NCBI GenBank assembly: GCA_002633005.1
Contig: NMRA01000022.1
Location: 867,357-931,356 of the forward strand
DNA length: 64,000 nucleotides
From: Phoronis australis
Lineage: Eukaryota > Animalia > Phoronida
Direction: 5' to 3'
This document shows, piece after piece, positions 21,991 to 64,000 of the stretch (positions are counted from its first letter, which is position 1; each line of letters begins with the position of its first letter). Both the position numbers and the translations under genes were made by a program. The notes under the pieces were generated by a model that did no database searches, was not told the DNA's origin, and saw only the letters and a program-made list of their open reading frames with translations.

Positions 21991-22449
21991 CGATATGAGC
22001 AGGAGAGTCTGCGAGCTCAGTGATCTGAATACACACATTTGGCGTGAACGTGTTTGAATGAAAACATACAAGCCCGTGAATGCTAGTGCTCTGGCGAGCT
22101 CACCGTGACTTTCTTGGAAGCCCATAAGGATGATTGAAATAAGTTCAGGGAGGACGCGGAGTCCTTTTACGCCCGGGGAACTAAAAATGCTCCGGGCGCG
22201 TCCCAAAGTGTTGTTTGGTGTAGTTTAATGTCATGTTATTCACACAAGTCACCATAGACCTGAATAATCCCATCAAGCTACCGAGGTACGGCCAGTGACC
22301 AGTTAGGCGACGCTTGGCTGGTCAACAATAGTTTAGTTAAACAACACCACAAAAGATTTGGGTCTGATGCTTTCATAACCAGCCGAGCTATCTCGTCATT
22401 CGAACAAGAAAGGTCCCCTAGGCACAACCGTCTCAAACGAGTTCGCATC

Positions 22450-23162
22450 ATGGCTTCCTGTCCGACGGGACGAACTGAGTGGGATGTCAAAGCTGTAGGT
22501 TTGTCATTTACTCAACTTCGAAAGCGTACCACCCGATTGGGTATTAGCGAGGCAGATTGGAGCAAACTTGATGGGCTTTACAAGATTAAATCTCTGACAC
22601 TCTTCAGGCGGTATGTTACGCAGGTGTCCAAGGTATTGCTCGTAGCAGCATTGGTGTTTATCTCATGCATCACATTTATCTACTACGTGCAGTGGCCGAT
22701 ATCACGCTTGACGTTGTATGGATTCTTGAAAGTTTTTATACGGTTTATACCGCAAACCGATGACCGAACCAACTGTTTTCTACCCATGGACTTTATAACC
22801 TCAAACATTATCCGACCGCCTCTGTACTGCGATTTTTGTAAAAATGTCACATCGGTGGATCGAGTAAAAAACATTACAGCCGATCAGTTCCTTGAGAAAT
22901 ATGCTTACACATCGCGCCCTCTTCTGATCGAGGGATACCAAAAGGTGTTAACAGAGGATGGAAGACCGTTCGATTTCAACTTCATCAAGAACTTGTATGC
23001 ATCCAACAGTCCCTCAATCAAGGGCACACATGAGATTTGTGAATATCAGCCGAAGATGGGTCTCGACAACTACCCAACACTTGGTCACCTGCTTAATATG
23101 ACTGACGAGAAATTGCACGCTCACAAGAATACCAACCGGGAGTCGCTGTGGTATGTTGGCTG
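22450..23162 (+). CDS. JmjC/cupin-domain protein, exon 1 (N-terminal TM segment, Cys-rich juxtamembrane region, start of the cupin domain)
   Basis: 238-aa ORF with hydrophobic segment VLLVAALVFISCITFIYYV, RPPLYCDFC, F.EKYAYTSRPLLI (typical JmjC N-terminal motif) and WYVGW. Ends at donor TG|GTAAGC (phase 2). Confidence 0.9.
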
Positions 23163-24019
23163 GTAAGCTTCCGTTACTCTCTTCACAAGTTCCAGCTGTA
23201 TAAACCTGTAAGTATACTAGTCGAAGGGCTCGGTTTTGCACATCGACAGATTTTTACTGCATCTAAATAATTGAAACCGTATCTCGTCTGCTCAGCTATC
23301 CAAAAGAATTACAATCAATACTAGCCAACTGTTCTCTACAAATGGACTTGACAAAATTTTAATCGCGACAGGACTTTGTTTCCTATGCGGAAGGCCTAAG
23401 CTTTCCACTGAGTCAAAAACACTTCAGAATATTATAGCCCATCCAAAATTTAGTCGCTTCACTTCAGTCACAGGCTTTCTTTCAAAGACGCAAGGGAATT
23501 TCTAAATTACATTTCATAAGCTCAGTTAGTGCTTTTCTTGGTTGCACGAAATCATTTTTTCCTACTTTCATTTATAAACCGTAAACGAAAAGTACATACC
23601 ACTTTAAAAAAACATTCATATTTTCCATAAAATTGCAGGGTATTAAAAAGTGTGTAGGATCACGTGCTTCGCTATATCTCACAAACACTTGTTTTACCTT
23701 GGGATTTCGCGTATTACCGTACGCAGTCCAGTCTTATCACTAACAAAAAAGTGCCGGCTGTCGTTGAACGATGATAACAATCTCCACTCAGAAGTGTAAT
23801 TTTCCGTAGATTCCATGTGACAGTAAGGTAAACCTTGGATCCAATTTTATTTTGAATCCTATATTGTAAATTTATGCAGATACGTATTGTAAAAGACTAC
23901 AAGATGACTGACACGTCTACTCACTAAATGCTGCGAGGCAATTCGTTTATTTAGATGCAAAAATCGTGAAATTGCAGCTACCAAATAGAAAGTTGATATT
24001 CTGCGCATTGCCGTTGCAG

Positions 24020-44049: not shown

Positions 44050-45195
44050 TCAACATTGACTTGAATCGAGTGTAGTGTAAAAACGAGTTGAATCTGTCGC
44101 AACCATTGACGTCGACGAATCAGACTGCGGCGTTTTTTCCCCACAAATCATGGCCCGTATCTCTTTCCTAAATCGCTTTCCGGAAGCAAAATAAACAGCA
44201 AAGTTAATGGAATGGTTCGTGTACAGACACATCCTAGTCAAAGCTTCAAACAGCAAAAACTGGGCCAGCTCAGTCGGGTCATCTTTGTTCCATTGCGACT
44301 CTAAGAGGAACTCTAGGTGACTGGGTGTTGTTAAGCATAGAAACACCATAGCAACCACCACAGACATTATTGTCATTGAGCGCATTTCATAGACGTCACG
44401 CTGCTTTTGCAGTACTTTGTCATCATTCGAATGTGGAGATACTTTGGACACAGACATTCCGTGAAAGGAAACCTTCCCCATTTTCCTTTTGGACGTCTTT
44501 AACCGATAGACTATTCGCACGCTACATATAATCATTGTTGCAAACGGCCCGAGGGCGTACAGTCCTAAAACACAATACGGTCGTACGTACCGCCAATAAA
44601 AAAATTGTCCCTCGCTCGGATACCCACATTCTTTAGTTTTGAAAACTGTGCCATTACCGTCTATGATTTCCTGGCGCCCTCTGGCCCAAAACACGCTGAT
44701 GTTCTCGAGTGCTACGAGAAACGCGACTACTGCCACTACTTTCTTAGTTCTGGAGAGGGAACACATAGTACTGGCCCGAAAGGGATGGCAAACAGAGATG
44801 AATCGCTCCAGCGACACTGTAACCAGGGTCCATGCAGACATATCGAGCCCAAAGTACAGGAAAAAGCGATGAAACTTGCAGCACCATTCGTTGATATTTC
44901 GAATATCCCAGTCACTTAGTTCTTTGGAATAGTTGCGTGTCAGTCCCGTAAGTAGCACCAGTAAATCGGCCAAGGCAAGAACAGAAAAGCAAAATCCGAC
45001 AGAGGTTTTACGGAAGGTTTGCCGTCTAGTAACCAAAAAGCATAGAATGTTTCCAATAAAACCAAAACAAAGCAAAACTGGTGAGAACATGAGCCAAAGA
45101 TATTTTGCAACTTTACTTCCCAACACTTCTCCAGTCGTCTCGGTAACGTTTGGAATCGTGGTCGAAATGTTTCCCTCGAGTGGACTGTATTCCAT
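44050..45195 (-). CDS. Rhodopsin-class (class A) GPCR, FMRFamide/MIP-receptor-like orphan, 381 aa, single coding exon
   Basis: Seven hydrophobic segments; GN in TM1, LALADL in TM2, Cys at the top of TM3, ERF (DRY variant), CLTTP in TM6, NHSINFAVY in TM7, F(R) helix 8; N-terminal sequons NIS and NVT. A splice acceptor (tttctacag) lies 27 nt upstream of the ATG, so the exon starts at 45222. Confidence 0.95.
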   Translation of the reverse strand: MEYSPLEGNISTTIPNVTETTGEVLGSKVAKYLWLMFSPVLLCFGFIGNILCFLVTRRQTFRKTSVGFCFSVLALADLLVLLTGLTRNYSKELSDWDIRNINEWCCKFHRFFLYFGLDMSAWTLVTVSLERFISVCHPFRASTMCSLSRTKKVVAVVAFLVALENISVFWARGRQEIIDGNGTVFKTKECGYPSEGQFFYWRYVRPYCVLGLYALGPFATMIICSVRIVYRLKTSKRKMGKVSFHGMSVSKVSPHSNDDKVLQKQRDVYEMRSMTIMSVVVAMVFLCLTTPSHLEFLLESQWNKDDPTELAQFLLFEALTRMCLYTNHSINFAVYFASGKRFRKEIRAMICGEKTPQSDSSTSMVATDSTRFYTTLDSSQC

Positions 45196-48149
45196 TCTTC
45201 AGGAATTCTGCTATACTTGTTCCTGTAGAAACGAGATAAAATACATTATAGGAAAATAATTTGATTAAAGAGTTCAAAGGCATACAATCAATAAAAGCCA
45301 GCTTCAACTGTTGGCAGTTTCAGATACGTGGGTGGATGGCAAGATGGCTATCAGGGCCCTAAATGCCCTGGTTTTGGGTGCGATTGTCGGTCCTATTCCC
45401 TCTCCAAATATTTAAAAATAACGCAAACTTCTCTCATCATGTCCAAAAAGTTGTCCCTCCAGTTAGTGAAAACTCCTCACACATTTAGCTCACTTTGACC
45501 CTCGACATCAGAATGTTTTATTAACCGCGAAAACCTACTCTTATGCACGACTTTCCATTATTACAGCCTCGATGTGGAAAGCAGGATCTCGGTTACTTTA
45601 TCAAAAGCGCAGGGGTATTAAATTACAAATAAACGTATGTATAATTTAAAAAATCACTCTTGAGAGTTCACAGTAATCCCTATCATACTAAGGCTTTTTA
45701 TTTTCTAAGAAAAAAAAACTTCTGTGGTCTGCACCAATTATAAAGCAAAGGCTTGAAACAAGCACAAAACAGCTCACTAGGTTTGGCTACTTGGTACAGA
45801 GTCCGTATTTGGTGCAACTGGTAGTGACCGAGGGAGGAGAATATTCCCCTGTAAAGAATTTCTTTTCATAGGCGGAGCTAAACTCGACTCGACAAGTGGC
45901 GGTGTTTGACGCCGCGGCATATTTAAATGGTAATGTCACGAGCCTTGGTTTCGATGAATGTCTCAAGCCGACAACGGCGAGAATCGCAAAAACACAAAGG
46001 GTGATTTTTTGTTTTGAAGGTATGGGTAAAGCTAATAATTCAGCATGTCTATTGCATCCGAAAATAATTGCAAAAATACGTTTTTCGGTCGTAAGACCGA
46101 TTCTGATGACGTTTCGGTTGTTTTTAAATAACTGAACACTATTATCATTCAATGAAAGCAACCCCACCAAAGCATTGCAGTGCCCTGCATCATTCAAAGG
46201 ATAAAATTGTCACTGACCTTACAATACAAGCGTGCACGGTGAGTGTGCTGGAGCTCAGGTTGAGGACGCATTGATACATGTATAATCAAATGGCGTTTGT
46301 AGATTGCTTTGCATCAATAACAACTGCAGTGTTACTTCAAAATTTGATATCTTTGCCAATATGTGGGTTCTCTCCAATTGCTCCTTTTTCCATTTTAAGT
46401 AACTCTCGTGGGAATTGTTTCAAACAACGTTTTAGATAACTGACCAACCGAAGCAGTGATCGACATATGAGCAAAAGCCTAACCATATCCGGACATTATC
46501 ACATATTTAAGATCTAAATACCACGGTCAATAATTGTGAACTGTTTGGGGAGACTACATCGGAAAACGTAGTGAAAATGTCGCCTAAATTGCATTTCACG
46601 GAATCTATGTTTATTTTTTATTATCATGAGGAAGTGATTACGAACCACGAGGTCACAATACTTACTAAGAAGCACTAATTTGTTAGGAGTGTGTGCGGAA
46701 GTCACTTGCGGTTGATAACGTAATCCACTGAATCACAACGTTTTTCACATTGCTTACTCTTTCGCTTTAAAGATACACTTTGGTTTTGTTTAAATTCCTG
46801 AAACTAAAGTTAATTCAATTAAGTTAAAAATCATGCCCAAGTTATACTCTTTCAACTTGACGCTAACCTTTTGTCAAGACATTCAGAATATTTATAACTT
46901 AGTTTTTGAATTTCTGGCGGCACTCGCCGATATAATGACCGGCGAAGTGAATATCAATAACCACCAGTTCTCGTGATTTAGAAGATTTAATGTACAACGC
47001 AACTCAAAAGGTGCCTTTTAAACAATCTCTGATATAATAATCGTATAAATGTATTTGTTAGGTGACGTGTGTAAGAAGAAAACATAATATCCTGGGCCCG
47101 TGGTCTTTAATCGAAACGAGACTCAAAGATTGAACAATTGCATGTCACGCAATTCTGTTCAGAACTTCCGGAATGAGCAATGATTTATGACAGGCGTTAC
47201 GTGAACCTCTGTCTGAGCGTGACCCGAGTAATTCATGTTTAAGTACATCCCCATCCTATGTCCATACTGACACATTCATAGCTATACACACATATTTATA
47301 ATATAAATGTATTCACACGTAAGTTATCTTTTGATTGCTTCGTGTTTTAGTTGGAGCACCTGACATTTTACAACTCGATAAGCCAATTTTACAGACATTC
47401 GATTTTGTCTTCTTTCCGGCGGGTGGCTCCTGAACACCGGAAGTTTCCAGACAATTGGTGAAGCCGGAAATGGCACCAAGAAAGTCTACATGTACTGTAC
47501 AGTACTAGAACACTAGAACACTCAACCAGATGCAGATTGAACTGAGTTGCAAACAAAATTTTTGGCAACGCCAGCCTGTGTTGCGTTACGTGAAGCAAGC
47601 TCCTACGAGTTTGACGAGATCACGCAAATATTTGCATGCACTAGGCCAACAGAGGCGGAGCACGTCATCACACTAACTTTCACTCACGCGAATGTATTGC
47701 GTTACAGAACGGGGCACCAAGTCTCTTACCTTCGCTGAAGTTATTAAGTCAGGAAACCTATACGACGTTTCACCGCAGACACCATCAGTCGACAATGAGG
47801 ACTTGACTAAAACTGTGGTGAGACCAGGAAGTCGTTAACGCCTTTTAAGATGTACCAAATCTGAGTAAAATGCTATACAGGGTGTCACAAAAGTGTTAAA
47901 AGGATAATATATCCTGTTTTGGGATATTCCGGTCTATCCTCGTTCTGTCCCCTGCTCATGCCCCATATGTCAGTCTTATTTGAGTGATCCAAACAGGATT
48001 CTACTAAAACCACTTACTCATAGGATTATAAATTAGAGTTTGTTGTTATTGGTCGGTGCGTGGTCTTTCTTCACAGCTGTTACATAACTCGTCACGCTTG
48101 CCAGTTTAGAACATTTTGTACGAAGTTCTCAGATTTGCTCTAAACTTAA

Positions 48150-49535: not shown

Positions 49536-51835
49536 ACGATCAGCGAAGTTTACTTCTGGATCTGCACGTGTGAGCTCCCTCATTACGTTACACGAATATA
49601 TTCATTTTAATTCATTTTATTTGAAGGGACAATCTCGGCGAGAAAAGTATTTTTTCAGAAATAAGCAGTGATGCGAAATCGACCCGGCTACCTATGTTAC
49701 CGCTCTGCCTTTAAGCCATATACAATGGGCTATAAAGAATAGTATTTAGCGTGTTTAAATGGTAAAGACAAAGGTCCTGATTTCAGTGAATGTTTGGCAC
49801 ACAGCGACGAGAATTGTCAACTTTTTATAAAATCACAAAACCACAGTGGACTTTCTTGTTTTATAGCCCTGGTCAAAGCCAATACCTTTCCAAAAATCAG
49901 TCATCCAACAATAGTCACAAAAAATGCGTCTTTCGAACAATAAACCCGACATAATGTTCGTTTAATATACTGTCTAATGTTCATTAACAATTAATGTCGA
50001 ATACATGTGGGTCATCGAGGACATCCCAAGATACTTTCTGATTCCTAACACTGAACCACTAGTTGACAGTTGGACGCTAAACAAACTGCGCAGAGCTACG
50101 TTTCACCACCATCACGTGAAAGTGCTATGAGTTAGCTAAAAGAGTACCCAAGGGACACCATAGACGGGTAGGAATACTCATTCTGCGGTACGTAATAAAA
50201 GAATTTTGCTATTACGAACTGTCCAAAGAAGTTAATGGGAAAAGAAATGAAGAAGTTAATGGGAAAAGAAATGAATTAGTCAGAACTGAGTTGCTCAGTC
50301 GATGAGAAAAGAACCTTCAGTTCGTTAGGCAAATTGCATTGAAGAGAAAAGAATTTTGCTAAATGAGAATTCCCATGAGCACAGTAACGGAAGAATATTA
50401 GAAACCCCGGTCAGAATTGCAGAAAGAACAGACATGTTTCAGTTTTCGCACGAAACGCGACCAGTTGGGTAGCTCCAACACCAGTATAATTCAGTTATTT
50501 TCCATTAAAGCTGATGCGTCAAGGGGAAACGCTCGTGATAAAACTGCCAGTGGCAGATCTACGTTTTCAGTAAGGGGGGAGGGGGTTAGGATTCGTGCGA
50601 ATCCGAAGCTCGTAGAGCCGAGCGGGGGGAGGTCGGGAGGGGCTTCCTCTCTCGAAACCCTCTCCCGTGTAAGATTTTTTTTGGTTTTTGTAGCTNGACA
50701 CTATACGATCAGCGAAGTTTACTTCTGGATATGCACGTGTGAGCTCCCTCATTACGTTACACGAATATATTCATTTTAATTCATTTTATTTGAAGGGACA
50801 ATCTCGGCGAGAAAAGTATTTTTTCAGAAATAAGCAGTGATGCGAAATCGACACGGCTACCTACGTTACCGCTCTGCCTTTAAGCCATATACAATGGGCT
50901 ATAAAGAATAGTATTTAGCGTGTTTAAATGGTAAAGACAAAGGTCCTGATTTCAGTGAATGTTTGGCACACGGCGACGAGAATTGTCAACTTTTTATAAA
51001 ATCACAAAAACACAGTGGACTTTCTTGTTTTATAGCTCTGGTCAAAGCCAATACATTTCCAAAAATCTGTCATCCAACAATAGTCACAAAAATGCGTCTT
51101 TCGAACAATAAACCCGACATAATGTTCGTTTAATATACTGTCTAATGTTCATTAACAATTAATGTCGAATACATGTGGGTCATCGATGACATCCCAAGAT
51201 ACTTTCTGATTCCGAACACTGAACCACTAGTTGACAGTTGGACGCTAAACAAACTGCGCAGAGCTAGGTTTCTCCACCATCACGTGAAAGTGCTATGAGT
51301 TAGCTTATAGAGTACCCAAGGGACACCATAGACGGGTAGGAATACTCATTCTGCGGTACGTAATAAAAGAATTTTGCTATTACGATCTGTCCAAAGAAGT
51401 TAATAGGAAAAGAAATGAATTAGTCAGAACTGAGTTGCTCAGTCGATGAGAAAAGAACCTTCAGTTCGTTAGGCAAATTGCATTGAAGAGAAAAGAATTT
51501 TGCTAAATGAGAATTCCCACGAGCACAGTAACGGAAGAATATTAGAAACCCCGGTCAGAATTGCAGAAAGAACAGACATGTTTCAGTTTTCGCACGAAAC
51601 GCGACCAGTTGGGTAGCTCCAACACCAGTATAATTCAGTTATTTTCCATTAAAGCTGATGCATCAAGGGTAAACGCACGTGATAAAACTGCCAGTGGCAG
51701 ATCTACGTTTTCAGTAAGGGGGGGGTTAGGATTCGTGCGAATCCGAAGCTCGTAGAGCCGAGCGGGGGGAGGTCGGGAGGGGCTTCCTCTCTCGAAACCC
51801 TCTCCCGTGTAAGATTTTTTTTGGTTTTTGTAGCT
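49536..51835 (+). repeat. Near-identical ~1.15-kb direct duplication (49536-50695 and 50705-51835) joined at a single N
   Basis: The copies differ by scattered substitutions and one short indel; N at 50696 lies exactly at the junction. Confidence 0.95.
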
Positions 51836-51942
51836 ATTTCGTTTTCCTGGCGACGTTTCTTTTAAATTTTTATTTTTGATCCTGTCTCGGGGGAGGGGGG
51901 GGGGACAAAAACCCCTGAACCCCCTTCGTAGATCGGCCTCTA
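51692..51942 (+). mobile_element. CAGTGGCAGATCT...AGATCGGCCTCTA MITE (partial duplicate at 50548-50695)
   Basis: Imperfect ~15-bp TIRs; flanks ACTGC/ACTGT; homologous to 56326-56582. Confidence 0.8.
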
Positions 51943-53751
51943 ACTGTTCTATGTTTTCTACTTTAGAAATAATGTTCAACTTGAAGGTAGGGTGTAGTGT
52001 TGAACTGGAGTGGTACTCATCATGTAGCCGAGCTCGCGAAGGCTCTAATAGGCTAGGCTGTATGGAGTCAGGAAAGAAAATACTCCTCGTAGGTGGTCGT
52101 TTTTGTGGCATTACTTCCATGCTTCGAAAGAGAATTTGGAATTTCTAAACTATACAAATAGCATTGTTACTTCCTAGACCGAGACCCAGTGAAAGAGCAT
52201 CGATAATTCTCATAATGAGTTTCATATTTCAAAAATTCAATACTTCGAAAGATAGCATACCACACTTCGATCTGCATAGTGGGAATAACCCTCTTCTTCT
52301 AGCTCGACCGGATCCGAGGAAATTCCCTCCAAAACTGCTCTTTCGCATATCACCCGAGTAGGGTATAGAAGAACATCTCTCGTGCTAAGCTGGATAAGGG
52401 AGCACGTGCCCACGAGCTGGATTTGGGACGAGAAGACAAAGTTAGACACGAGACAACTTCCAATTTGGCCCTGCGAGTACCCCGACTTCGCATAGAGAGA
52501 TGGCTGTGGGATTGCCGCCAGACCTGGCATGCGGCCGGAGTACTTCCCGCTATGGGAATTACCAGCCTTGAAGACATGCCCGATCATCTGCGGGTTCAGT
52601 ATAGTGATTCTCGATGTGTTACTCGAGCCCAAAATTGTAACAAATCGGGCAAAAACGTGTGCCCAGATTTGTTACAATTACTACTTACAGATTGGGACCT
52701 ATTTAGAGCATTTAATGGGCCCACTACATTTACCAATTCTACTACAGGTTGTTTATAACAAGTGAATGAAGCAATTTGGCTATACGTCCTTGATCAAAGA
52801 CTTCGGTATTTTGTTATGTAATTTTAATTTTTAACAAAACCATTTAAAATGTTTTTTTAAAGTTCATCCCCTCAAAACCAGAGAGCCTATACAACAGTAA
52901 CGACTCGGGGCTGAGTTATGGAGGCATTTGACTATATGGGGTTTTAGCACGGCGGCAAAATCGGGATAGGGCATATTTGGTATGGATCCGAAAAAATAAT
53001 CCAGTTCCGTTCCTGGAACACTGCCTCCCGGTTGCAAGGGTACTACTCCCATAAACCTAGCCTGTTCAGGAAAGGTTCTGTACAGCTCAGCTGAATGTTT
53101 GACCAAATTAACCTAAAAAGAATACCTTGGGGAGGATTTCATGTTGTCAAAATGTATACCAATCCTTTTGAAACCAACATTTTATTTAAAACTTCCCTCT
53201 CTATAGTTTTAGAATTTAGAACTCTTTCGTAAGTAATTTCGTCAAGAAAGACGCGTTTTGGGAGGGAAACTGGTCATCCATCTGAGTTGCACGTCCTGTA
53301 TACCTCTTCTATTGGAGTAGCCCCCAGGTGAACTCTCAGCGTTCATAATCCAAAAATAGAACATGCGTCAGACATGTGACCTTTTGAGTATTTTTATGAC
53401 GTCATAATGTAAACTTCGGCTCATGAAAAGAGCCACGAAGCTGGAGACTAACTTACACTTAATTATTACATAACCAATATACTAATGCATGGAAAATAAC
53501 ATTTAAAAATTTTCAAATACCACGTCGAATAGACCAAAATTTATCCATTATCAAAACGTCACCTGTAGGCGTTACGTTGCATTATGGGTAAATTGTATTT
53601 AAATACGTTATGACCTAATTTTATCTACCTGCATTCATCAGGACAACGCTATCGATGTTTGTAGTTTAAACGACCGAAACATTCGACTAATTAACGACAC
53701 CGATGTCACTGTTCTAGTCCCTGAGGAAGTAAAACCACTTAAGCTGACGTA

Positions 53752-53863
53752 ATGCCGGCAAAAGATTTCGACGAAGCGAGGTGGAATGAAGATAGTCGAA
53801 TTGAATTCGTGCCTGAAGACCGAGGGTACTACGCTCTCGGAATAATCGAGGCAATTTACATAG
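53752..53863 (+). CDS. GIY-YIG domain protein, coding exon 1 (not in the ORF track)
   Basis: ATG preceded by an in-frame TAA (53740-53742). Reads MPAKDFDEARWNEDSRIEFVPEDRGYYALGIIEAIYI-G. Donor G|GTAAGC is phase 1, matching the acceptor at 58385. Confidence 0.85.
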
Positions 53864-56325
53864 GTAAGCTGGGGTGACGTTCTCGCTTCGCCCAGTAGTG
53901 TTGCGCCCATTTTGATTTTTTGATGTTAATAATATGATTATCTTGCTCTCGGTGTGTTTATGCGAACAATGTCTCATACTCTATGATTACCTTAGGTTTA
54001 TTAATACCTGTGGTATAAACCAGTGATGGCAGCTATTACCAGTGAGAGCCCAGTGCCAGTGGTCACATATTTCATGTGGTTAACTGTCGTTATTTTAATT
54101 AAACACTACCTTAAGGACTCAACCATGCATTTTGTATGTGTCTTTCCATTCCCTTAATCATGTTTCTCCCCCTTGTTGAAATAATGTCAACGCACTGTCA
54201 GCATCTGAACGATAAGTGAACCACCGAACATACCGATGCCGACTGAGTACGTTATGCAATCGGTAGACATATTTGTTTGGCTTGTTTACCAATCTGTTGT
54301 TTGACAGTGTCATTGGTACGCGTGAACATACCTGTGAGTGATCAATCGGAGATTGTTGAGGTCCATCGAACCCCAGTCCCGTACGCTTGAGTGGATATCA
54401 CGAGTATTGAAAAACATGGTTTGTCATGAATCTTCACAACATGTCAAGAGTGTTTTCCGGGGGGGGGGGTACTCGACTAAATTTTGAATGGGTGTGTTTT
54501 TTGCTGATATGTTGGAACACCCGCTCGTTTACAGAATGGACAAGATAAAACCCACCCTTTTAGACAATAAAATAGATTACTGGATATCCATGTTGCTGGG
54601 AGCTATTATAGAAAGCTCGAATTTTTCCAAAACATTACCTTCGTATAGGGGCTTGAAAGGGACATTATGGGGCTTACTGCAGAACAATTGCATTTTTGTA
54701 AATATTTTTGAATCGAAAAGACTTCTGTGGTTGCATGAAACATTCACAAATGGGGGGTCGACTAAGTTCCCAAAACTCTTTGCGTTTTTGTGTCATCATA
54801 GGTGTAAATTTTTTTTCATCATTTCGTATTTAATATGAGCTTCTCCTTGACGACTAATGACATTTCCTAACAATTTAATGTACTAAAAACTGGACGCTGA
54901 GTCCAACAAAAAATGGGATTAGTTCTTAATTTAGGGTCGTTGCAAATTTATTTTCGATAAAATTGAGAATTAAACGTAAAGTTCACTCTCTGCTTACATC
55001 AAAGCCAAACATTGACTTAGCGTAAGAAAGGACAATCGGTGTTTTCATAAGTTCCTAAATAGACAGTAGATATACCTACATAAAACACGGGATATACTTG
55101 GCACTGTTTCATGTAATCGACACTTAAAGCTGTTATCCTTAACCAGAGTTATAAAAAACAAAATCCGTTGGCTTTGTGATGTTATTACAAATCGCAGTTA
55201 TCGCTGTTGTCCGCCAGATAAGATCGATGACTATGTAAGTGCCGTTCAGCTCCGCCAGCAGAGCTTTGCACTGCAACTGCTGAGGTTGCGGGCGCGATTC
55301 CTCGTTATGGCCGACCAATTTGCTTCCCTATTTTGTCGCTTAAACCATACAAAATGACTATTTATTGGACTAAAATTAAATGAACAACTAATTGGATTGT
55401 AATGTTTTTTTTTTCCTACAAACGTAAGAGTTCCAAAGTCACAAAACGAACCCTTTCGCAGGAGCAATCATAGACACTTTTCGTAGGTAACTAGGCCTCG
55501 AGAAAGTCATGCATCTGAACGTCACGTCCCGTATGTATGTCAATAATGTTCCCTCGTAGTCAGTCTCACAACTTCATGGTTTTGATAGAATTGACCCGTT
55601 CAGTTTCAAGTTATAGAACGTGCCTCGGAGCTCTCTCATGAGGAGGTGTTAGCGGAGACGTGCTTCCAACCCATGTAGATATTTTGCAGTTTTGACTTAT
55701 AAGATTTCTTTGATATTCTCATGTGATATCGGAGGTATAGTATGTGCACTGTCGGGTATCCATGACTCGGTACCCATGTACCCCACAGTTGCCCAGGTAT
55801 TGCGTTGGTGTGGATATTGACAGTTCGACCTCTAGCACCGACTGAATGTACAATTATTTTCTAATTAAGCAGTCCTATTTAAAGTAACATTATTGCCGAG
55901 AAAAGTGGTTCTCTGTAATCAGCCACAATTGAATCGACAGCCCCCACGGGCGCAGTCTAGGCCCTACACTACGAACATCATAATATTTAAGGGGTTGGCC
56001 CGGCTTTGAAATCAGTGAATGTCTGACAAATAACGCCAAGGATTACCAATTTGTAATAAAACCACAAAAATGAGCCAATTTTGGATTTTTATAGAAAGCT
56101 ATCTATCCCACCCTACACTAATCACAAACGCGTTTTTGGGGCGATAAAACCGCAAGTTCTTGAAATCCTTTCAAGTTTAACCGAATGAAATTGTAGATGC
56201 CATTTTCATGCTTTAAAGCCTGACAATAAATTGTTTTTTTAACATGAAATTCTGAGAACGCAAGCTACTGGCGACTTGATATTTCGTATTCCATCCAAAC
56301 GTACTTACTCTCAAAGCACACCTAG

Positions 56326-56582
56326 CAGTGGCAGATCTAAGTTTTCAGTAAGGAGAGGGGTGGTTAGGATTCGTACGAATCCGAGGCGCGTAGCGCCGAG
56401 CACTGGGAAGGTCTCGAGGGGTGTTTCCCTTTCCCGTGTAAATTTTTTTTTTGTTTTTAGTAGCTGACTTCGTTTTCCTGGCGACATTTTTTCTTAATTT
56501 TTATTATTGACCCTGTCCCGATGGGGGGGGGGGTTGAACCCCCTGAANAACCCCCTGAACCCTCCCCGTAGATCCGCCTCTA
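56326..56582 (+). mobile_element. MITE in the intron of the GIY-YIG gene, TSD CCTAG
   Basis: Same family as 51692-51942; CCTAG on both sides. Confidence 0.8.
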
Positions 56583-56971
56583 CCTAGCCTCAGACATTAC
56601 AATCAACCAGTAACAGACGTCAGCCATAAAAGTCCCTCCCAAGCGTTAATATTTTCGACGGACGACATCTTTGTTGTGGAAAGGAAAACCCTAAACGATA
56701 CTCCGCTCGGCTATAGACCATAAGTATGTATGCAAAATGCCGTGACTCACGCTCCAAAGAAACGTAGATGTTCAAATTTGCCAAAATTGTCGAAAACCAA
56801 AAGCCTTGAAATTGGCCAGTAAAGGTAAAGTTTACACTTACCTGTAATTTAAGTCTTTTCAAATACACTGTGCAAACAAATCACCATGAAGTTGTCATGC
56901 AATTCTTATTGTGTTTATACCACTGACTTCTGATACACCCGTGAGCGTTTCATTTCCAGCTATTGTTGACT

Positions 56972-57116
56972 ATATATGAAAATAAAATAACAGTAATGGA
57001 TCGACTGAAATGTTCCGATGTAATCGAATCCTTTTTCAACAGAAACAAAATACAAGGAAAAAATTGATTATAACCGAAAATTTCAGTTGATCCTTTGTTG
57101 TTTTATTTTCATATAT
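56972..57116. repeat. Imperfect inverted repeat with ~60-bp arms (foldback)
   Basis: atatatgaaaataaaataac...ggatcgactgaaat pairs with atttcagttgatcc...gttgttttattttcatatat. Confidence 0.75.
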
Positions 57117-58384
57117 TCTACGTTTCGTCAAGCAGTATTATCCTTCAGGGATTCTGGGTCACCTCGTTTAGTTTCAGATTTATTTTCTATTGTGTTCATT
57201 TTTTGATTTTACTATGAGAAAAAATATTAAAAACACAAACACAGTCGGGGAAACATGTTGACGTAATGATATTCTAATTACGATTTCAAGAGGATTCATT
57301 GTGGGGCAGTTTGGATGTTTCATGTCGTGGGATTTCAGTCACATTTGAAAAATACTGTAAATATATAGACGCTGAGGTTGGCCAGTAATGAAATATTGAA
57401 AAACACACATTGAACTATTGACGATGTAATTACGAGAAATCATGAAATGCCCCAATCTCATTTACAACAATTAACTTGCATACATTTATCACGTGTCATT
57501 AGTCAAACAAGTAATGGCATGCGTAGGTACAATGTACTAAGCTTTGCCGTTAAACGTCCTGAATGAGGTCACACCGGGTTAATGTGACTCCATTTACGAG
57601 GGACACTGTCTGACCTGCGCTCTTTGCACAAACCGTATTTTTCTATAAGGTTTCACTAATTCCACTCTAAGGTTTATCGTGGGGGATCCAAATCCATCGA
57701 GATCAACATTTTGTTGGACATCCAGCACACATTGATTTACGATCCATTCCGTATAAATGTAGTTTCGCTCAAAGTTTATAAATTTGAAAACAGCTTTGTT
57801 TTCAGTGATTACCGTAAATAAATATCACAGCTTATAATTATTCTTAAAGCTATATTTCGCTCCTGTTTATCTGGCTAAATACGAAAACAAAGTAGGCCTT
57901 TTATTCTCATGAAATCGGTCTTACAGTTTACCTCAACTTAAAAGGTTTAATTTCCTTTACAAACTAAAGTCAGAGAAAATGCGTACATGCGTCATTTTCA
58001 AATTCGCAATTTCAGGTTTGGCCAACCCGAGAAACGTTTACTGGGGTCGCAGATGGTTTCGATGTTGTTGGTTACGGATATAGAATCCTATCGCGATAAA
58101 GAATATTACGGGACCGATTCTATGACTGGTTTTGTTTGTTATTAATATAAAATCCTATTACGGTCAAGAGTTAGGAGACTGATTTTATGAGAGAGTAAAA
58201 GGCTGCGTAATGTAGTTTTGAACAGCTTTTTTCATGAATCAGAAAAATTCTGAAAATAATTTCCAGAAATTGTTTCTTATTTGTTTTTGAAGCAATATTT
58301 CCATTGTAACCTTGTAGGGTTTGAATTACACTTCAAGGACCTTATTTTTAAAATATATTCTCAATTTTCCCGTTGCTGTTACAG

Positions 58385-60879
58385 GAACCAACCCTCCACG
58401 ACTATGTGATACCACCATTCGCGAGAGGGTGCGTAGTCATTTTACCAACAAAGACCAGCAGCGAATAAGTCGATACCTGTCTTCTCTTGAGTCATGGGAG
58501 AACATCCGAATATGGTACTTCGATACCCCAAGACCGTGTATCGAAGAGAGGCGCTTAGTAACCGAGTACAAACTGATTCACAAGGGTTATATGCCCGAGT
58601 TTAACGAACTCCGTGTCTGGAACCCGTGCAAGTGTCCCGAGTGTTGCAGTATTCCACCGACACCGATGGCTCCACACTTGACCACGTGGCAATGGAAGAG
58701 AGTGCCTCAATGCGAGGCCTCTACAGACGGACAATTCAACTATGAAATGATTGACCCACGACGAATACCTAACAAGAAGGGTATATATGCAATTGGTAGA
58801 GTGATTCTCTTCAGAAGCGAGCTGACACAAAATTTAAAACAGAGCATGCAGGAGCATTTGGCCGGTCTTCCTGGAAGCATTGTGCGTATATGGTGGCGCC
58901 GCGCAAACCCGGAAATAGAACGCCCCCTGCAGCAAGTTATTTCTAGAATGACTGACAGTCGTCACTCTTTGCGTATTTCTACAATTAGCCTTAATAGTAA
59001 TAGACCTAACCAGAAAACTAGTGTCCAAAAGAACCAACCGAAAACAAAGCCTGATCATGTTCGTCCCCCGGATGACGTGTTAACAATGTCGCGTAGTTCT
59101 TCAGTGTCATCTGTCGACAGACGGCGTCAGAATAGCATGCCGGTGCGGCTGAAGGGAGGCCGGGTAGTCCAGACTGAAGATTCACATCTGCGAGGTCGCC
59201 AAAACAGTATGCCGATTCGCCAACGAGGTCGCCGAGCACAGAGAGCTCAATCGGAGTCACGGCTGAAAGACGTTCATCACAGCGAAGACGACCTTGACGT
59301 GAAAAAATCTAGAACAATGTCTGAACGATCGCTACCTGATAAGAAGCCATCACTTGCAAATGATCTCGAAGTCACAAGCCAGCCGAGTAGGCATTCTAGT
59401 ACGAAAACCGAGTCTGGTGAAAGCAGTGACTTTGGCCAGCCGAGTCTATCGCACCTGGCAAAGACTGAGTTGGAGACAATAAACGTGGCATCGCTTTTGA
59501 GACCTTCGTCGAGTGATAATACTGATTTCCAATCTGCGACCACGGTGCATAAACGAGACGAATTTATTTCCGAGTTGAAATCAGCGCAGCGCAGAATTCT
59601 TGGAAATAGTGTGTTAGACAGTGAACAGTCTGAAACTGACGAGGTTTTCGTTACAACGCCAAACGTAGTAGACAACGAAATGCCATCAACGTCCCGTGGT
59701 TCAGTGTCACGGGTGCCTGCTTCGCTCCCACGTGGCAAATCTTTTGACCACACATCACCGTTAAACGTCGATGACAAGAAAACCTTGACGTCGTATGATC
59801 CATTGTTGCACACCACTGCGCCACTGGTTCATAACAAAGAGCTCCACCAGTCGGCGAACGTTAAAGTCCGTAATGAAAATTTGTTGACGTCACACGAATC
59901 ACAGCTAAAAGATTCGCCCCCACCGTTGCCCGTTAAGGGTATCAAACCGAGCGTGGCAGTCAACGTGTTGCCAATCCCTGATAGAAAGCCCCTAGCACCA
60001 GAAAGGCCACCCAAGAAACCAGACAGTGTGAAACCAAATATGATGACAACTGGGAACGCGACATTGACAGTGAAACAAACGCTAAATGACTCTGTTGAAT
60101 CCGATCCCCATAACAAAACAAACGTAGCTGCACCAGCAAATGGCAGAGTTCTTGGTCGCCGAACTTTGATAAAGGTTGCTGCAAACGATCCTGGAAAAAA
60201 TGAAAAGACTGTTTCACCAAGCAGACCGGACACACCGGATTCAGTTCAGTCGGACCACAGGCCGGCCACACCGGTCTCTAAAGTTTCAGACCATTCGTCG
60301 AAAACGTCGGGAAAAGGAAATAAGCCGAAGAAGTCAAACAAAAAAGAACCGGACCGTGGGAAACAAAGATCACAATCTTTGCGAGATCCCAAACGGCCTA
60401 AGCCGATCCATCCTGATAGGTTTGATCGTCAAAGCCTTGCTTCAGATGATGATCACGGGAATAGAATTATGGTTCAATATAAAAACAAGAAGACAGGCAG
60501 AATTGAAACTGTTGACATAACCGATGTGCAGTATCGTAAGCGAGCTATTTTAGAAAGGCGAGAAGCGGAGAAGCGTGCTTTGGAAAGAAAAGAAGCAGAG
60601 AAACGTGAAGCCATTGAGCGGCGGAAGGAGGCCATTGCAGCAGCGAAAGAACGCGAACGAGAGGTGCAGTTAGCGAAACGGGCGGAACTGGAGAGAGCAA
60701 AGTCATTAAAAGAGGCGAGAGCGAAAGAGCAGAGCGAAGCTAAACGACAACTCGTTGAGCGCAAGAAATCTATGAAAAAGTCGAAGGATTCTGAAAAGTC
60801 AAAACCCCAGCCATTGCCGTCTAACGAGGGCTACGAGCTGAAAGCAACTCGCAGTGACAAAGATTGTGTTATTTCGTAG
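58385..60879 (+). CDS. GIY-YIG domain protein, coding exon 2: rest of the nuclease domain, degenerate second copy, disordered region, charged helix, CaaX
   Basis: Uninterrupted 2.5-kb ORF. Acceptor gttacag|GA completes the Gly of YIG. Contains IRERVRSHF, EERRL and PEFN, a second IPNKKGIYAIG motif, and ends CVIS*. Confidence 0.9.
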
Positions 60880-61191
60880 TTGAGAACTGTCCTCCGTGTT
60901 TTAATGTGATCTCAGAAATACACATTGTTAAGGTTGGGCCAAAAATTGTGTAATAGGTTGAGGGTCCATTAGCTGTACTAGAAACTCGACTCCGTAACAG
61001 ACCAATTCCATGTCACGCTTCGAGAGAACTTTGCAAATTCGTGCTCGAATCGTGCAGCGTGATTTGTTAAATTTCAAATCAGGGTGGAGTCTTAGTTCTC
61101 ACCCTGGTCTGTGACCTACTTACTTTGAAACTTTCGTCCCAAAAGGAACACCAGGTTGAGCCTGGTAAAAAATTATCCTGAATAACAGCAG

Positions 61192-61205
61192 CCACCAGGT
61201 GGCGC
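61192..61205 (+). promoter_or_regulatory. CTCF-consensus motif CCACCAGGTGGCGC
   Basis: Exact match to the known CCASYAGRKGGCRS core; binding is not shown. Confidence 0.4.
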
Positions 61206-62647
61206 TGGACAAAAAGAAGACTGTAATTTTCTCTTTGAAAAAATGATCAAATAAAACATCGCCGCATCAACGTTAAAAAAGAGGCCAGAACTAATTATGC
61301 TATTTTTGGCTGTACTCTTAGACTGAATTTTAGTAGTTAGGACCACTTCACATTGTGGGTTTATTGTACACAGCATTATGGGATTTCGATTAAATCTTAT
61401 AATCACCAAACACTTCCGTGGCTGTAGACAGAGCTCTTTCATTTTTTACCCTGTTTGTTACCAATCATTCACAAGTTACTCAAGTTAGTATCGATTAAGG
61501 TGTAAGTCAACTATAAGTGGTTTTTGTACTTAAATGGTCTTCCATGTGTCACGTCCCAAATACGAGTCCCTCTGTGTTATGGTGTTTACAGCTAGATTGT
61601 GTGCTATCAGTGTCGTTGTTTTGAATTTTATTTTTTTAACTGGGTTTTATTAGTAACATTTTTTATTATTTAATCGTCTATTTATATTCCCCAGATAATC
61701 TAGCATTACGTATTTAAAGTTTTTGAAAAAATATTTACTTTTACTTGTCGTTTTATGGGACTAAAATGTTACTAATGTGCCCAAGCTTCCGTGATGTGTA
61801 AAGACTTTGAAAGCCTTCAGCGTGCACGCCAGTACGCACTGATCAATTCAAGCACTCTATGCTATTGTAGGTATATTTTCTGTAAATTCGGAAGATTTCA
61901 TGCTTTTCAATCACTCTTGACGAAAATATCTAGCAGGAATGGTTTGGTTTGGTTTGATTTCGTACATTTTTGTGTTTACACTTATGAGTATAAAGATTGA
62001 TCATAGTTTTTCCTCATCAGTCATATATGTGGAATGTATGTATGATCAACGCAGACGCGGATTTAAAATCATGACCAGGCCGGCTTTTGTTAAGGGGCAG
62101 ACGTAGCGTACGATTTGTATTCCTCCACTGTATTGACAGCACAGATGTTGTGCAAATTTGTTTGCTCTGGATTCACGTTTCGGTTTTTTCAGGACTGTTT
62201 TATATACGATGAGCTCATGTAATAGTGCTGTCATTTTCATGATTGTTTACAATGTATGAAAATACAAAAAGTAATTTTGAAAATAGTCCATTTGTTTTCT
62301 AATACGTCGTGAAAGCTTGGAACATTTGCGTAACTGAAAATAGTTACAGATATTAAAATATTGGGAAGGTTGCTTTTTGTAATCTTCAATAGGCATGGTT
62401 GCTGTTTGAAACGACTGTATTGAAGATCAAATGAATTATAGGTGTAAATATCGTGTAATTTAGTTGGTGACTGAGAATTTATGTCGTAACAAATCAATGA
62501 CATGATCAATAATGGTGATCCTTGCTCAAAAGAGTGCTTGTGTATGTAGTTTATTCTGGTGTTTGTGTCTGGCAAAGTTTCCCACGCTGAGAGTACAGTT
62601 CAAATCGACGTCACATGGCACTAAAATTGGCCTAGCTTATTACTACC

Positions 62648-62832
62648 TGTTGGTTCTTTCACATTCTGAGGTCTCAGTGACCCCTGTTGGTTCTTTCACA
62701 TTCTGAGGTCTCAGTGACCCCTGTTAGTTCTTTCACATTCTGAGGTCTCAGTGACCCCTGTTGGTTCTTTCACATTCTGAGGTCTCAGTGACCCCTGTTG
62801 GTTCTTTCACATTCTGAGGTCTCAGTGACCCC
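62648..62832 (+). repeat. Minisatellite, 5 x 37 bp
   Basis: Unit tgttggttctttcacattctgaggtctcagtgacccc starts at 62648, 62685, 62722, 62759 and 62796; one substitution; no spacers. Confidence 0.97.
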
Positions 62833-64000
62833 TGACAGGTTCTTCAGAGAAGAGTGGTCTCTATGGGGTAAAAAAGGAACCTATTTCAATAGCCGCGAAT
62901 CTTAAAAAAAATCTCTCACATTAATTATTTTCTCAGATAATGACCCACACAAAATCCACACTGAAAAGAAATTAAATACAAGACTCATTATTTTGACTTA
63001 TAACTTATTACCAGATTAGATAAAAATACTTCGTGAAATTTATTGCAAAAATGAAACTAGTGGTCATTGTTCATATCTCTGATTTGAGTCTTCCCGTGAA
63101 GAGATTCCTTGTTTTAGGATGTAGTGATCCGTGAAATTTCCCCAAATTCATGGACGCGAACGAGTGTATTGGAACTGAAGCGGCCGGTGGTAAAGATTTT
63201 GATGGCCCCAACTGAATGGAGGATAGAGTTGATGGGGTCTGAATTACGCACTAAACACTGACATTATCTTCCTGAACCGAATCTCGAGACTATACTACCT
63301 TGCAGACTGAACATTCACCTTCCAGGGTGAGGGTACAGATATTTAAGCCGTTCATAAAGATTTCCCAAGCACACAATCAAATCACAGAGTGTCGCGGCAC
63401 TTGATTAAATATTTTCCTCGTTAATGAGAGAGAAAAAAAAAGACAATTTGAAATGTTAAAATACGCATACAAATCAGATTGTAGCTTAGTATGATAAAAA
63501 TCTGCTCAAATCACTTTAATTTTCCTTGAGATCTACACCAAACTAAAATTTCAGTAGAGTATCTGATAGAGACTAGCAGCGCCCAGCTACTCCTAGTGGC
63601 GGGGAAACGAAGCTTGTATTTATTTGCTTTTCCGAGAAATCAAGGGACGGTTCAGTTGGGAGGTGAATTGTTGTTTGGGTGTCAGGTTAAACCAAAGACG
63701 CTCTACGGTATATGGATAAACCATTTGGTAAATATATTACGTTCGTGTTAATTGTCGGTTCAGTTTCTCACTAAAGGCATGTACATGTAGCACTCACCGA
63801 GTCAACTGGTGTGAAATCATAACCACTGGGCCAAATTTTATTGTATGACCCAGGATCGATTTCGTTGAGTCAGGTCACAGTGAATTGTTCCCAACTGCTT
63901 CCATGTAGGCTTAGCAGGTATTGTACTGTGAATCGTAGAGATTGCAGGTCCCTTGGTCGATTGAAACTAATCAAAATGAAAAGTGCGTAGTGTTAATAAA

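Follow-up and report, generated by a model that had tools for sequence, protein, structure and literature searches.

A 64,000-nucleotide (nt) stretch of contig NMRA01000022.1 from the phoronid Phoronis australis (assembly GCA_002633005.1, positions 867,357 to 931,356 of the forward strand; hereafter the window) contains a spliced and expressed, intron-containing animal host gene whose 868-amino-acid (aa) product combines an N-terminal GIY-YIG nuclease domain (domain 1), a second, degenerate GIY-YIG-like domain (domain 2), a long low-complexity tail, and the C-terminal residues CVIS, a canonical CaaX prenylation box. Domain 1 can be placed in the GIY-YIG superfamily by sequence homology that runs across the whole domain and was recovered with three independent sets of members; it almost certainly has the GIY-YIG fold and is probably an active nuclease. 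The explanation we favor, tentatively and with somewhat less than even confidence, is that the product is a farnesyl-anchored, probably structure-selective endonuclease that would sit at the nuclear envelope or endomembranes and clear stray or branched DNA there. The architecture of a probably active and a likely dead domain, a long linker, and a CaaX box is new within the known superfamily, and the literature that we found, mostly outside subscription journals, contained no prenylated GIY-YIG nuclease, no animal protein with tandem active and dead GIY-YIG domains, and no naming of DUF7508.

A spliced and expressed host gene

The junction between positions 53863 and 58385, which skips 4521 nt between a donor GT at 53864 and an acceptor AG ending at 58384 and joins the exons in phase, is carried by eight reads in three of three raw RNA-seq runs (four in X2 and two each in X3 and X4, all from one study, with about 18-19% of each run examined), and the same joint occurs at a depth of 50 in an RNA contig from a second study (X1). 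An earlier note on this DNA, made from its letters alone, had proposed that a 112-nt exon joins in phase to a 2.5-kb open reading frame (ORF) to encode an 868-aa protein ending in CVIS, that spliced RNA would confirm this junction, and that the gene is an intron-containing host gene; the spliced translation, which terminates in CVIS and a stop, the junction reads and contig, and expression from the + strand bear these proposals out. Because in-frame stops immediately 5' of the ATG at 53752 lie within transcribed DNA (the X1 contig starts at 53708), we take this ATG as the start codon. The transcript extends from at least 53708 to about 62180, with an X1 contig spanning 59148-62182 and raw read depth ending near 62370, and no further joint was seen; CVIS and its stop codon fall inside the transcribed last exon.

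The coding part of exon 2 is covered by 131, 153, and 41 aligned reads in the three raw runs, nearly all of them 95-100% alike, which suggests that the gene is single copy. For all coding-region reads the first mate lies on the - strand, with none on the + strand in any of 30 bins, which under the usual stranded protocol means + strand RNA. The gene is expressed at a low to moderate level, with about 1.4-5.1 reads per kb per million, and codon-position GC content (guanine plus cytosine) showed no useful difference from neighboring genes.

The two domains and the C-terminal tail

Domain 1 was scored on the spliced protein with profiles built from fetched prokaryotic GIY-YIG domains. A hidden Markov model of 80 UvrC/Cho-type domains matches aa 15-112 at 18.1 bits (P=1.4e-7), where the best of 2000 shuffles reaches 4.3 and the reversed sequence -1.4; the score is 18.8 bits against 122 UvrC/Cho-type domains and 19.9 against all 168 domains (maximum of 1000 shuffles, 3.8), and it rises to 22.1 bits (P=9e-9; shuffle maximum 6.8) in an end-to-end alignment with 16 domains of the small stand-alone type. 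Y27, Y36, R52, H56, and N111 align in register and the glutamate falls at E92 or E98 depending on the profile, so that the order Tyr, Tyr, Arg, His, Glu, Asn read by eye in the earlier note is present in an alignment well above its shuffles. As described in the cited passages, the catalytic set of ANKLE1 and Hotaru maps onto domain 1 (PMC10287932; bioRxiv 10.64898/2026.03.19.713005), and the R-x3-H spacing of R52 and H56 equals that of Hotaru R129 and H133. Pfam found no family in either exon alone, including the 830 aa of exon 2, because the intron splits domain 1 after the YIG strand. For aa 39-125 the sole NCBIfam match was TIGR00194 UvrC (E=0.13), an Atlas search ranked a GIY-YIG cluster third for domain 1 at 0.89, which is a lead only, and a single-sequence AlphaFold model of aa 39-258, the exon 2 part only, was unusable (pLDDT, the predicted local distance difference test, 33).

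The pattern had earlier been taken for that of the UvrC/Cho N-terminus, and the profile match to such domains is indeed significant, but the closest profile is that of small stand-alone prokaryotic GIY-YIG proteins of about 100 aa, reached by following DUF7508 (22.1 against 18.8 bits, a margin that is biased upward since the 16 profile members, like the C-terminal motif, were partly selected for resemblance to the query). That motif, E-x6-Y/F-x3-H/Y/F-G-x2-P-x2-N, lies at aa 92-111 of the query and occurs in 27 of 55 stand-alone-type domains (22 of these being close kin), in none of 122 UvrC-type domains, and in 4 of 200,000 shuffles; the UvrC-type C-terminal motif also fits the query, at E98 (31 of 200,000 shuffles), and both patterns were written after the query was seen. 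Two trees, of 51 and 44 rows, were built without eukaryotic or viral GIY-YIG sequences and with a random sample of 18 of the 122 UvrC-type rows, the second tree also without domain 2 and the SLX1-like rows. In the 51-row tree, domain 1 lies outside UvrC/Cho at a split of 92/98 and the SLX1-like rows form a clade separate from it; in the 44-row tree, the 18 UvrC/Cho-type rows form one side at 99/100 with domain 1 excluded, subject to a long-branch caveat. The phylogeny with UvrC/Cho and SLX1 that the earlier note had suggested thus separates domain 1 from UvrC/Cho, but its placement among the stand-alone proteins is an unresolved group (a polytomy): no supported set contains domain 1, and its identity to any tree row is at most 30%.

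Membership in UvrC/Cho was rejected on this position outside the clade (99/100) and on the lack of any UvrB-binding, EndoV-like, helix-hairpin-helix (HhH), or Cho-specific domain in a Pfam scan of exon 2. Small profiles of bacterial LEM-3-like proteins (4 sequences, -2.4 bits) and YhbQ/SLX1-like proteins (10 sequences, 1.7 bits) did not match domain 1, a 3-sequence profile of DUF7508 proper matched neither domain, and PF19239 (ET-type) had no usable bacterial members among 101 genomes. Given the profiles, the trees, the non-matching LEM-3 and SLX1 profiles, and the absence of Penelope features, domain 1 is of prokaryotic type and not UvrC/Cho proper. A prokaryotic origin of the domain seems slightly the better bet, and a horizontal origin is plausible, although no close donor was found and the trees hold no eukaryotic rows. 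Two further arrangements were seen among prokaryotic proteins: archaeal and bacterial proteins of 360-900 aa that end in a degenerate GIY-YIG-like domain (L111, L112, L113, L145-L155, L212-L217), and, in bacterial proteins of 360-370 aa, a GIY-YIG domain behind a region that by eye may resemble a sigma-54-type DNA-binding part (L242 in its 1-1800 region, L241, L219).

Only a single GIY-YIG domain had been reported in the earlier note, which missed the degenerate copy at aa ~152-225. Domain 2 scores 9.8 bits against 46 stand-alone-type domains (P=6e-5, 0 of 1000 shuffles), and its Atlas search gave 30 matches up to 0.94, of which 22 are in clusters without a common Pfam family, seven in clusters where 13% of members have GIY-YIG, and one in a cluster where 26% have DUF7508; the clusters listed are 100-116 aa long. 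A model built from a 40-row GIY-YIG-type alignment shows the expected strand-strand-helix-strand-helix order at pLDDT 60. With this model the top Foldseek match, UvrC 1yd6, is non-significant (E=4, template modeling score 0.51); in VIA the plant GRXS16 N-terminal domain 2lwf comes second (Z 4.7, root-mean-square deviation 2.9, 74 aligned), tied with the top row, an ATP-grasp protein (Z 4.9); and a viral fold search returned nothing under E=1. This fold support is weak and partly circular, and homology and predicted fold together would class domain 2 as GIY-YIG-like. It is likely inactive, since it lacks the second Tyr, has Ser191 at the Arg position, and lacks the Asn of the C-terminal P-x-x-N. 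The similarity between the two domains is marginal (138 of 5000 shuffles are as good; rank 9 among 2000 shuffles) and they group in 13% of bootstrap trees, so we infer a tandem duplication rather than demonstrate it.

CVIS fits the strict Cys-aliphatic-aliphatic-X pattern at the true C-terminus, inside the transcribed last exon, and the protein is probably prenylated, as the CaaX signal had led the earlier note to expect. The probability of such an end, computed from composition, is 8e-5 to 2e-4; among the 5548 frame ends of the window, four carry one, this gene counted. The Lys-rich end also claimed there stands in part: a Lys-rich block exists at aa 830-839, but some 25 residues separate it from the CaaX that follows, and the last 20 residues, with three K/R and four D/E, are not basic. 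The missing polybasic patch beside the CaaX argues against the plasma membrane. In the passages cited, CVIS is the S-farnesylation box of human ZAP-L and relocalizes ZAP-S when appended (PMC8568172; PMC12582503), and a nuclear localization signal (NLS) plus CaaX suffices to act on the nuclear membrane, as in lamins and in Kugelkern, which has a coiled coil, an NLS, and a CaaX (PMC2947476).

Substitutions read from the RNA alignments (40 of 145 rows in one listing and all 8 rows of another) number at least 35 distinct coding changes, 16 synonymous and 19 non-synonymous; 34 of them map to aa 322 or beyond, and the one earlier change is synonymous. All the listed changes that alter a residue fall at aa 364 or later, and CVIS is spared, being unchanged in all four runs where covered. 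The X1 tail carries 16 non-synonymous changes in 1327 sites and 15 synonymous changes in 404 sites, and the resulting ratio of about 0.32, computed by hand, indicates that the protein is under constraint. An allele with an in-frame 3-nt insertion in the linker, at 59665, was seen in X1, X2, and X4.

Coordinates of the gene and of the parts of its product are collected in the table.

Table. The GIY-YIG/CaaX gene and its features (positions in the window)
Feature	Position	Strand	Basis or remark
Exon 1: 5' untranslated region (UTR) from at least 53708, ATG 53752, aa 1-38	53708..53863	+	Carries GIY strand (Y27) and YIG strand (Y36) of domain 1; coding part 53752-53863, 112 nt
Intron, 4521 nt, GT..AG, GC 0.39, host interspersed repeats inside	53864..58384	+	
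Exon 2: coding to stop 60877-60879, then ~1.3 kb 3' UTR	58385..62182	+	ORF, X1 contig, reads
GIY-YIG domain 1, aa 13-112, interrupted by intron	53788..58608	+	Profiles; Y27, Y36, R52, H56, E92 (alternative E98), N111
Cys cluster C119-x-C121-x-x-C124-C125 between domains; candidate metal or acylation site	58627..58647	+	Sequence
Degenerate GIY-YIG-like domain 2, aa ~152-225	58726..58947	+	Profile, Atlas; keeps GIY (Y172) and His195
Ser/Pro/Lys-rich low-complexity linker, ~520 aa, predicted disordered, with NLS-like basic clusters and Pro-rich motifs	58978..60540	+	Sequence; no Pfam match
Glu/Lys/Arg-rich predicted single helix or coiled coil, aa 757-838, 59% E/K/R, no Pro/Gly; ends in basic NLS-like block aa 830-839	60541..60789	+	Sequence
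CaaX box CVIS and stop codon	60865..60879	+	Sequence

The nearest clear gene upstream is a single-ORF rhodopsin-family G-protein-coupled receptor (GPCR; 7tm_1, E=1e-25) at 44050-45198 on the - strand, from which it follows that the window is animal DNA. A 300-aa frame at 22264-23166 (+), for which Pfam and NCBIfam gave no match, resembles a long coding exon belonging to a host gene, and a weak Pfam match to GEO12453p1-like at 45790-46209 (-), under the cut-off at E=4.6e-4, may be an exon of another gene. Between 49536 and 51835 there is a near-identical (98-99%) tandem duplication of about 1.15 kb, which is either recent or an assembly artefact. A short interspersed repeat is present in two copies, 51688-51945 and, within the intron, 56326-56585; many RNA reads of both strands match the intron copy in part, which marks it as a common genomic repeat. 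A 37-bp tandem repeat at 62609-62846 lies just past the 3' end of the transcript.

Proposed function and its rivals

In our proposal, the starting point was a small, stand-alone GIY-YIG gene of prokaryote type that reached this lineage; a tandem duplication within the ORF followed, along with the acquisition of an intron and a long tail. Domain 1 would nick DNA by the one-metal GIY-YIG mechanism, with Tyr/His as general base and with Glu and Asn holding the metal, and, because the protein has no sequence-reading module, it would probably be structure-selective, like ANKLE1, SLX1, and Hotaru; domain 2, without the Arg and the Asn, would probably serve as a binding or regulatory partner. CVIS would be farnesylated. 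With NLS-like clusters in the protein and no polybasic patch flanking the CaaX, the expected destination is not the plasma membrane but the inner nuclear membrane or endomembranes, where a flexible linker of 500 aa could give the anchored enzyme access to DNA near the membrane and hold it back from bulk chromatin. A bolder form of this proposal, which we regard as rather doubtful, is that the capture of a small prokaryotic GIY-YIG gene gave rise to a nuclease with one active and one dead domain in tandem, held by a farnesyl anchor, that surveys the nuclear envelope or endomembranes for DNA that is stray or foreign. It would then be the third animal DNA cutter to be targeted to a compartment by a route of its own, following ANKLE1 (LEM tethering) and Hotaru (mitochondrial import), and the first prenylated nuclease of the superfamily.

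Several observations weigh against this picture of an anchored nuclease. The catalytic glutamate differs between profiles (the UvrC profile picks E98 and the stand-alone profile E92), and a profile of the C-terminal half left the choice undecided; in domain 1, YIG is followed by an insert of 6 residues, and the turn that joins the two strands is very short; and the domain sits on a long branch, in no well-supported subgroup, in trees free of eukaryotic and viral rows. NLS-like patterns are common in any Lys-rich tail. X1 substitutions are fewer in the domains (1 in 601 covered bases) than in the tail (31 in 1732; p=0.0016), but the raw reads alone give p=0.21 and synonymous changes are likewise scarce in the domains, so that the low domain variation is no proof of selection and could reflect haplotype structure. 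In an A-run of the X1 contig, one additional A behind 60015 would end the frame at 60087, with loss of the helix and the CaaX; it is present in 0 of 16 raw reads (0 of 6 in X2, 0 of 10 in X3) and is either an artefact or a null allele. Finally, no orthologue or paralogue was found in the collections searched in which the catalytic residues and the CaaX could be compared. All of these searches used exon-2 pieces, the first third of domain 1 being absent from every query: word-based protein searches gave nothing at E<=1 (222 and 51 candidates), genome, viral, and metagenome contigs held no relative, plasmids and phages gave only noise at E 3-7, PDB sequences only noise, and PHROGs and five bacterial genomes nothing. 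The sole phmmer match among 1.84 billion representatives, a 1965-aa PKD-repeat protein, was rejected as spurious. An exact look-up showed that the neighboring GPCR is also absent from the protein collection and, given this and the truncated queries, the blanks do not show a true orphan.

The same anchored nuclease could instead be a cytosolic defence effector, active on the cytoplasmic face of endosomes or the endoplasmic reticulum, where it would destroy viral, bacterial, or leaked organelle nucleic acid as ZAP-L does for RNA. Passages of two sources encourage this idea, one in which ZAP-L reaches vesicles by way of the identical CVIS, which its antiviral activity requires (PMC8568172), and one in which prokaryotic GIY-YIG domains work in foreign-DNA restriction (PMC13179284), and orphan status and fast sequence change would suit an immune gene. 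We nevertheless consider it unlikely, as Pfam found no sensor domain, the tail has several NLS-like clusters, and the similarity of the coding reads (95-100%) leaves no close paralogues, whereas immune families usually expand. There is also a small chance that the product is a soluble nuclear repair or DNA-elimination nuclease, with a CaaX that arose recently or by accident and a tail that is a loosely constrained scaffold: this would account for the lack of a polybasic second signal beside the CaaX and for a tail in which many substitutions, a 3-nt insertion that keeps the frame, and perhaps a frameshift are tolerated, and Hotaru, as described, is a lineage-restricted animal GIY-YIG enzyme without a lipid anchor. 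It would, however, leave to chance a strict CaaX at the true end (about 1 in 1,400 to 1 in 12,000) that did not change in four runs where covered.

If both domains only bind nucleic acid or protein, the gene would encode a pseudo-nuclease scaffold, a membrane-anchored adaptor as for ANKLE2, whose GIY-YIG-like domain is non-enzymatic in the passages cited (PMC13179284). Domain 2 is plainly degenerate, prokaryotes have degenerate relatives such as DUF7508, and the tail has Pro-rich motifs, but ANKLE2 lacks the GIY and YIG motifs, and domain 1, with less than 30% identity to any relative, keeps all six catalytic positions, a retention difficult to account for unless catalysis was selected for; this reading is quite improbable. 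Least credible, and very improbable, is the idea that what lies in the genome is not a host gene but the endonuclease of a Penelope-like or other mobile element or of a virus. GIY-YIG domains are common in mobile DNA, and the CCHH motif is missing from some Penelope-like clades (Hydra, Chlamys), according to the part of the source cited (PMC8557442). Yet Pfam is empty for exon 2, in agreement with the earlier note, which had seen no reverse transcriptase (RT), LEM, or ankyrin region; the 64 kb contain no RT or other element ORF, and no other long ORF lies near the gene; there is no Cys between GIY and YIG (none before aa 45) and no Rfam match, hammerhead included; and the 4.5-kb intron with host repeats, the 1.3-kb UTR, the host genes nearby (7tm_1 GPCR), and reads that point to a single copy speak for a host gene. 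A current mobile element is thus largely refuted; in the distant past, the gene may still have arisen from a virus or element.

Comparison with known systems

Animals are known to encode only a few GIY-YIG nucleases of their own. In the passages cited, SLX1 and ANKLE1 are the only two GIY-YIG nucleases annotated in humans (PMC13179284), and Hotaru was added in 2026. The Phoronis gene is of another lineage than these three, its nearest relatives being small uncharacterized prokaryotic proteins. If its product is active and prenylated, it would show that a DNase can be confined by a lipid anchor, supply a tractable example of gene capture accompanied by intron gain, and open a way into the DUF7508-related proteins.

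Those small stand-alone prokaryotic proteins (~100 aa; PF01541/PF24348, DUF7508-related; for example, P0002, a 'GIY-YIG nuclease family protein' from a haloarchaeon, and L219 and L242-L247) provide the best profile for domain 1, share its C-terminal motif and its side of the tree, and are the Atlas neighbors of domain 2. They differ in that here there are two tandem copies, an intron, a 630-aa tail, and a CaaX, at identities under ~30%. The UvrC/Cho N-terminal domain (PDB 1yd6, 1ycz) resembles domain 1 in its significant profile match, the C-terminal Asn, and a Cys-rich stretch after the domain, whereas the UvrB-binding, EndoV-like, HhH, and Cho C-terminal domains of the architecture set out in the cited part of PMC1564403 are absent here.

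Among elements and more distant host proteins, Penelope-like endonucleases are described, in the section cited, with an RT in the ORF, a CCHH motif with two Cys between GIY and YIG, and a hammerhead ribozyme (PMC8557442), none of which is found here. Plant EFFECTOR OF TRANSCRIPTION (ET) proteins are likewise eukaryotic host proteins with a UvrC-like GIY-YIG and Cys-rich parts, as the cited passage has it (PMC6585611); they differ in that the exon pieces scanned here, short of the complete domain, have no PF19239 match, and ET repeats were not seen. For targeting logic only, ZAP-L (PARP13), which ends in CVIS, and Kugelkern, with its coiled coil, NLS, and CaaX, or the B-type lamins are the closest parallels, and they differ in having no homology to this protein and no nuclease domain.

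ANKLE1/LEM-3, Hotaru (PF22945), and SLX1 are, like the protein described here, animal host GIY-YIG proteins with the same catalytic set; in the passages cited, ANKLE1 is linked to the nuclear envelope through its LEM domain, Hotaru is lineage-restricted and targeted to a compartment, and none of them is described with a CaaX. The Phoronis protein differs in having no ankyrin, LEM, or RING domain and no mitochondrial leader, and, whereas the SLX1 type lacks the C-terminal Asn motif according to the cited part of PMC1564403, that motif is present here at N111.

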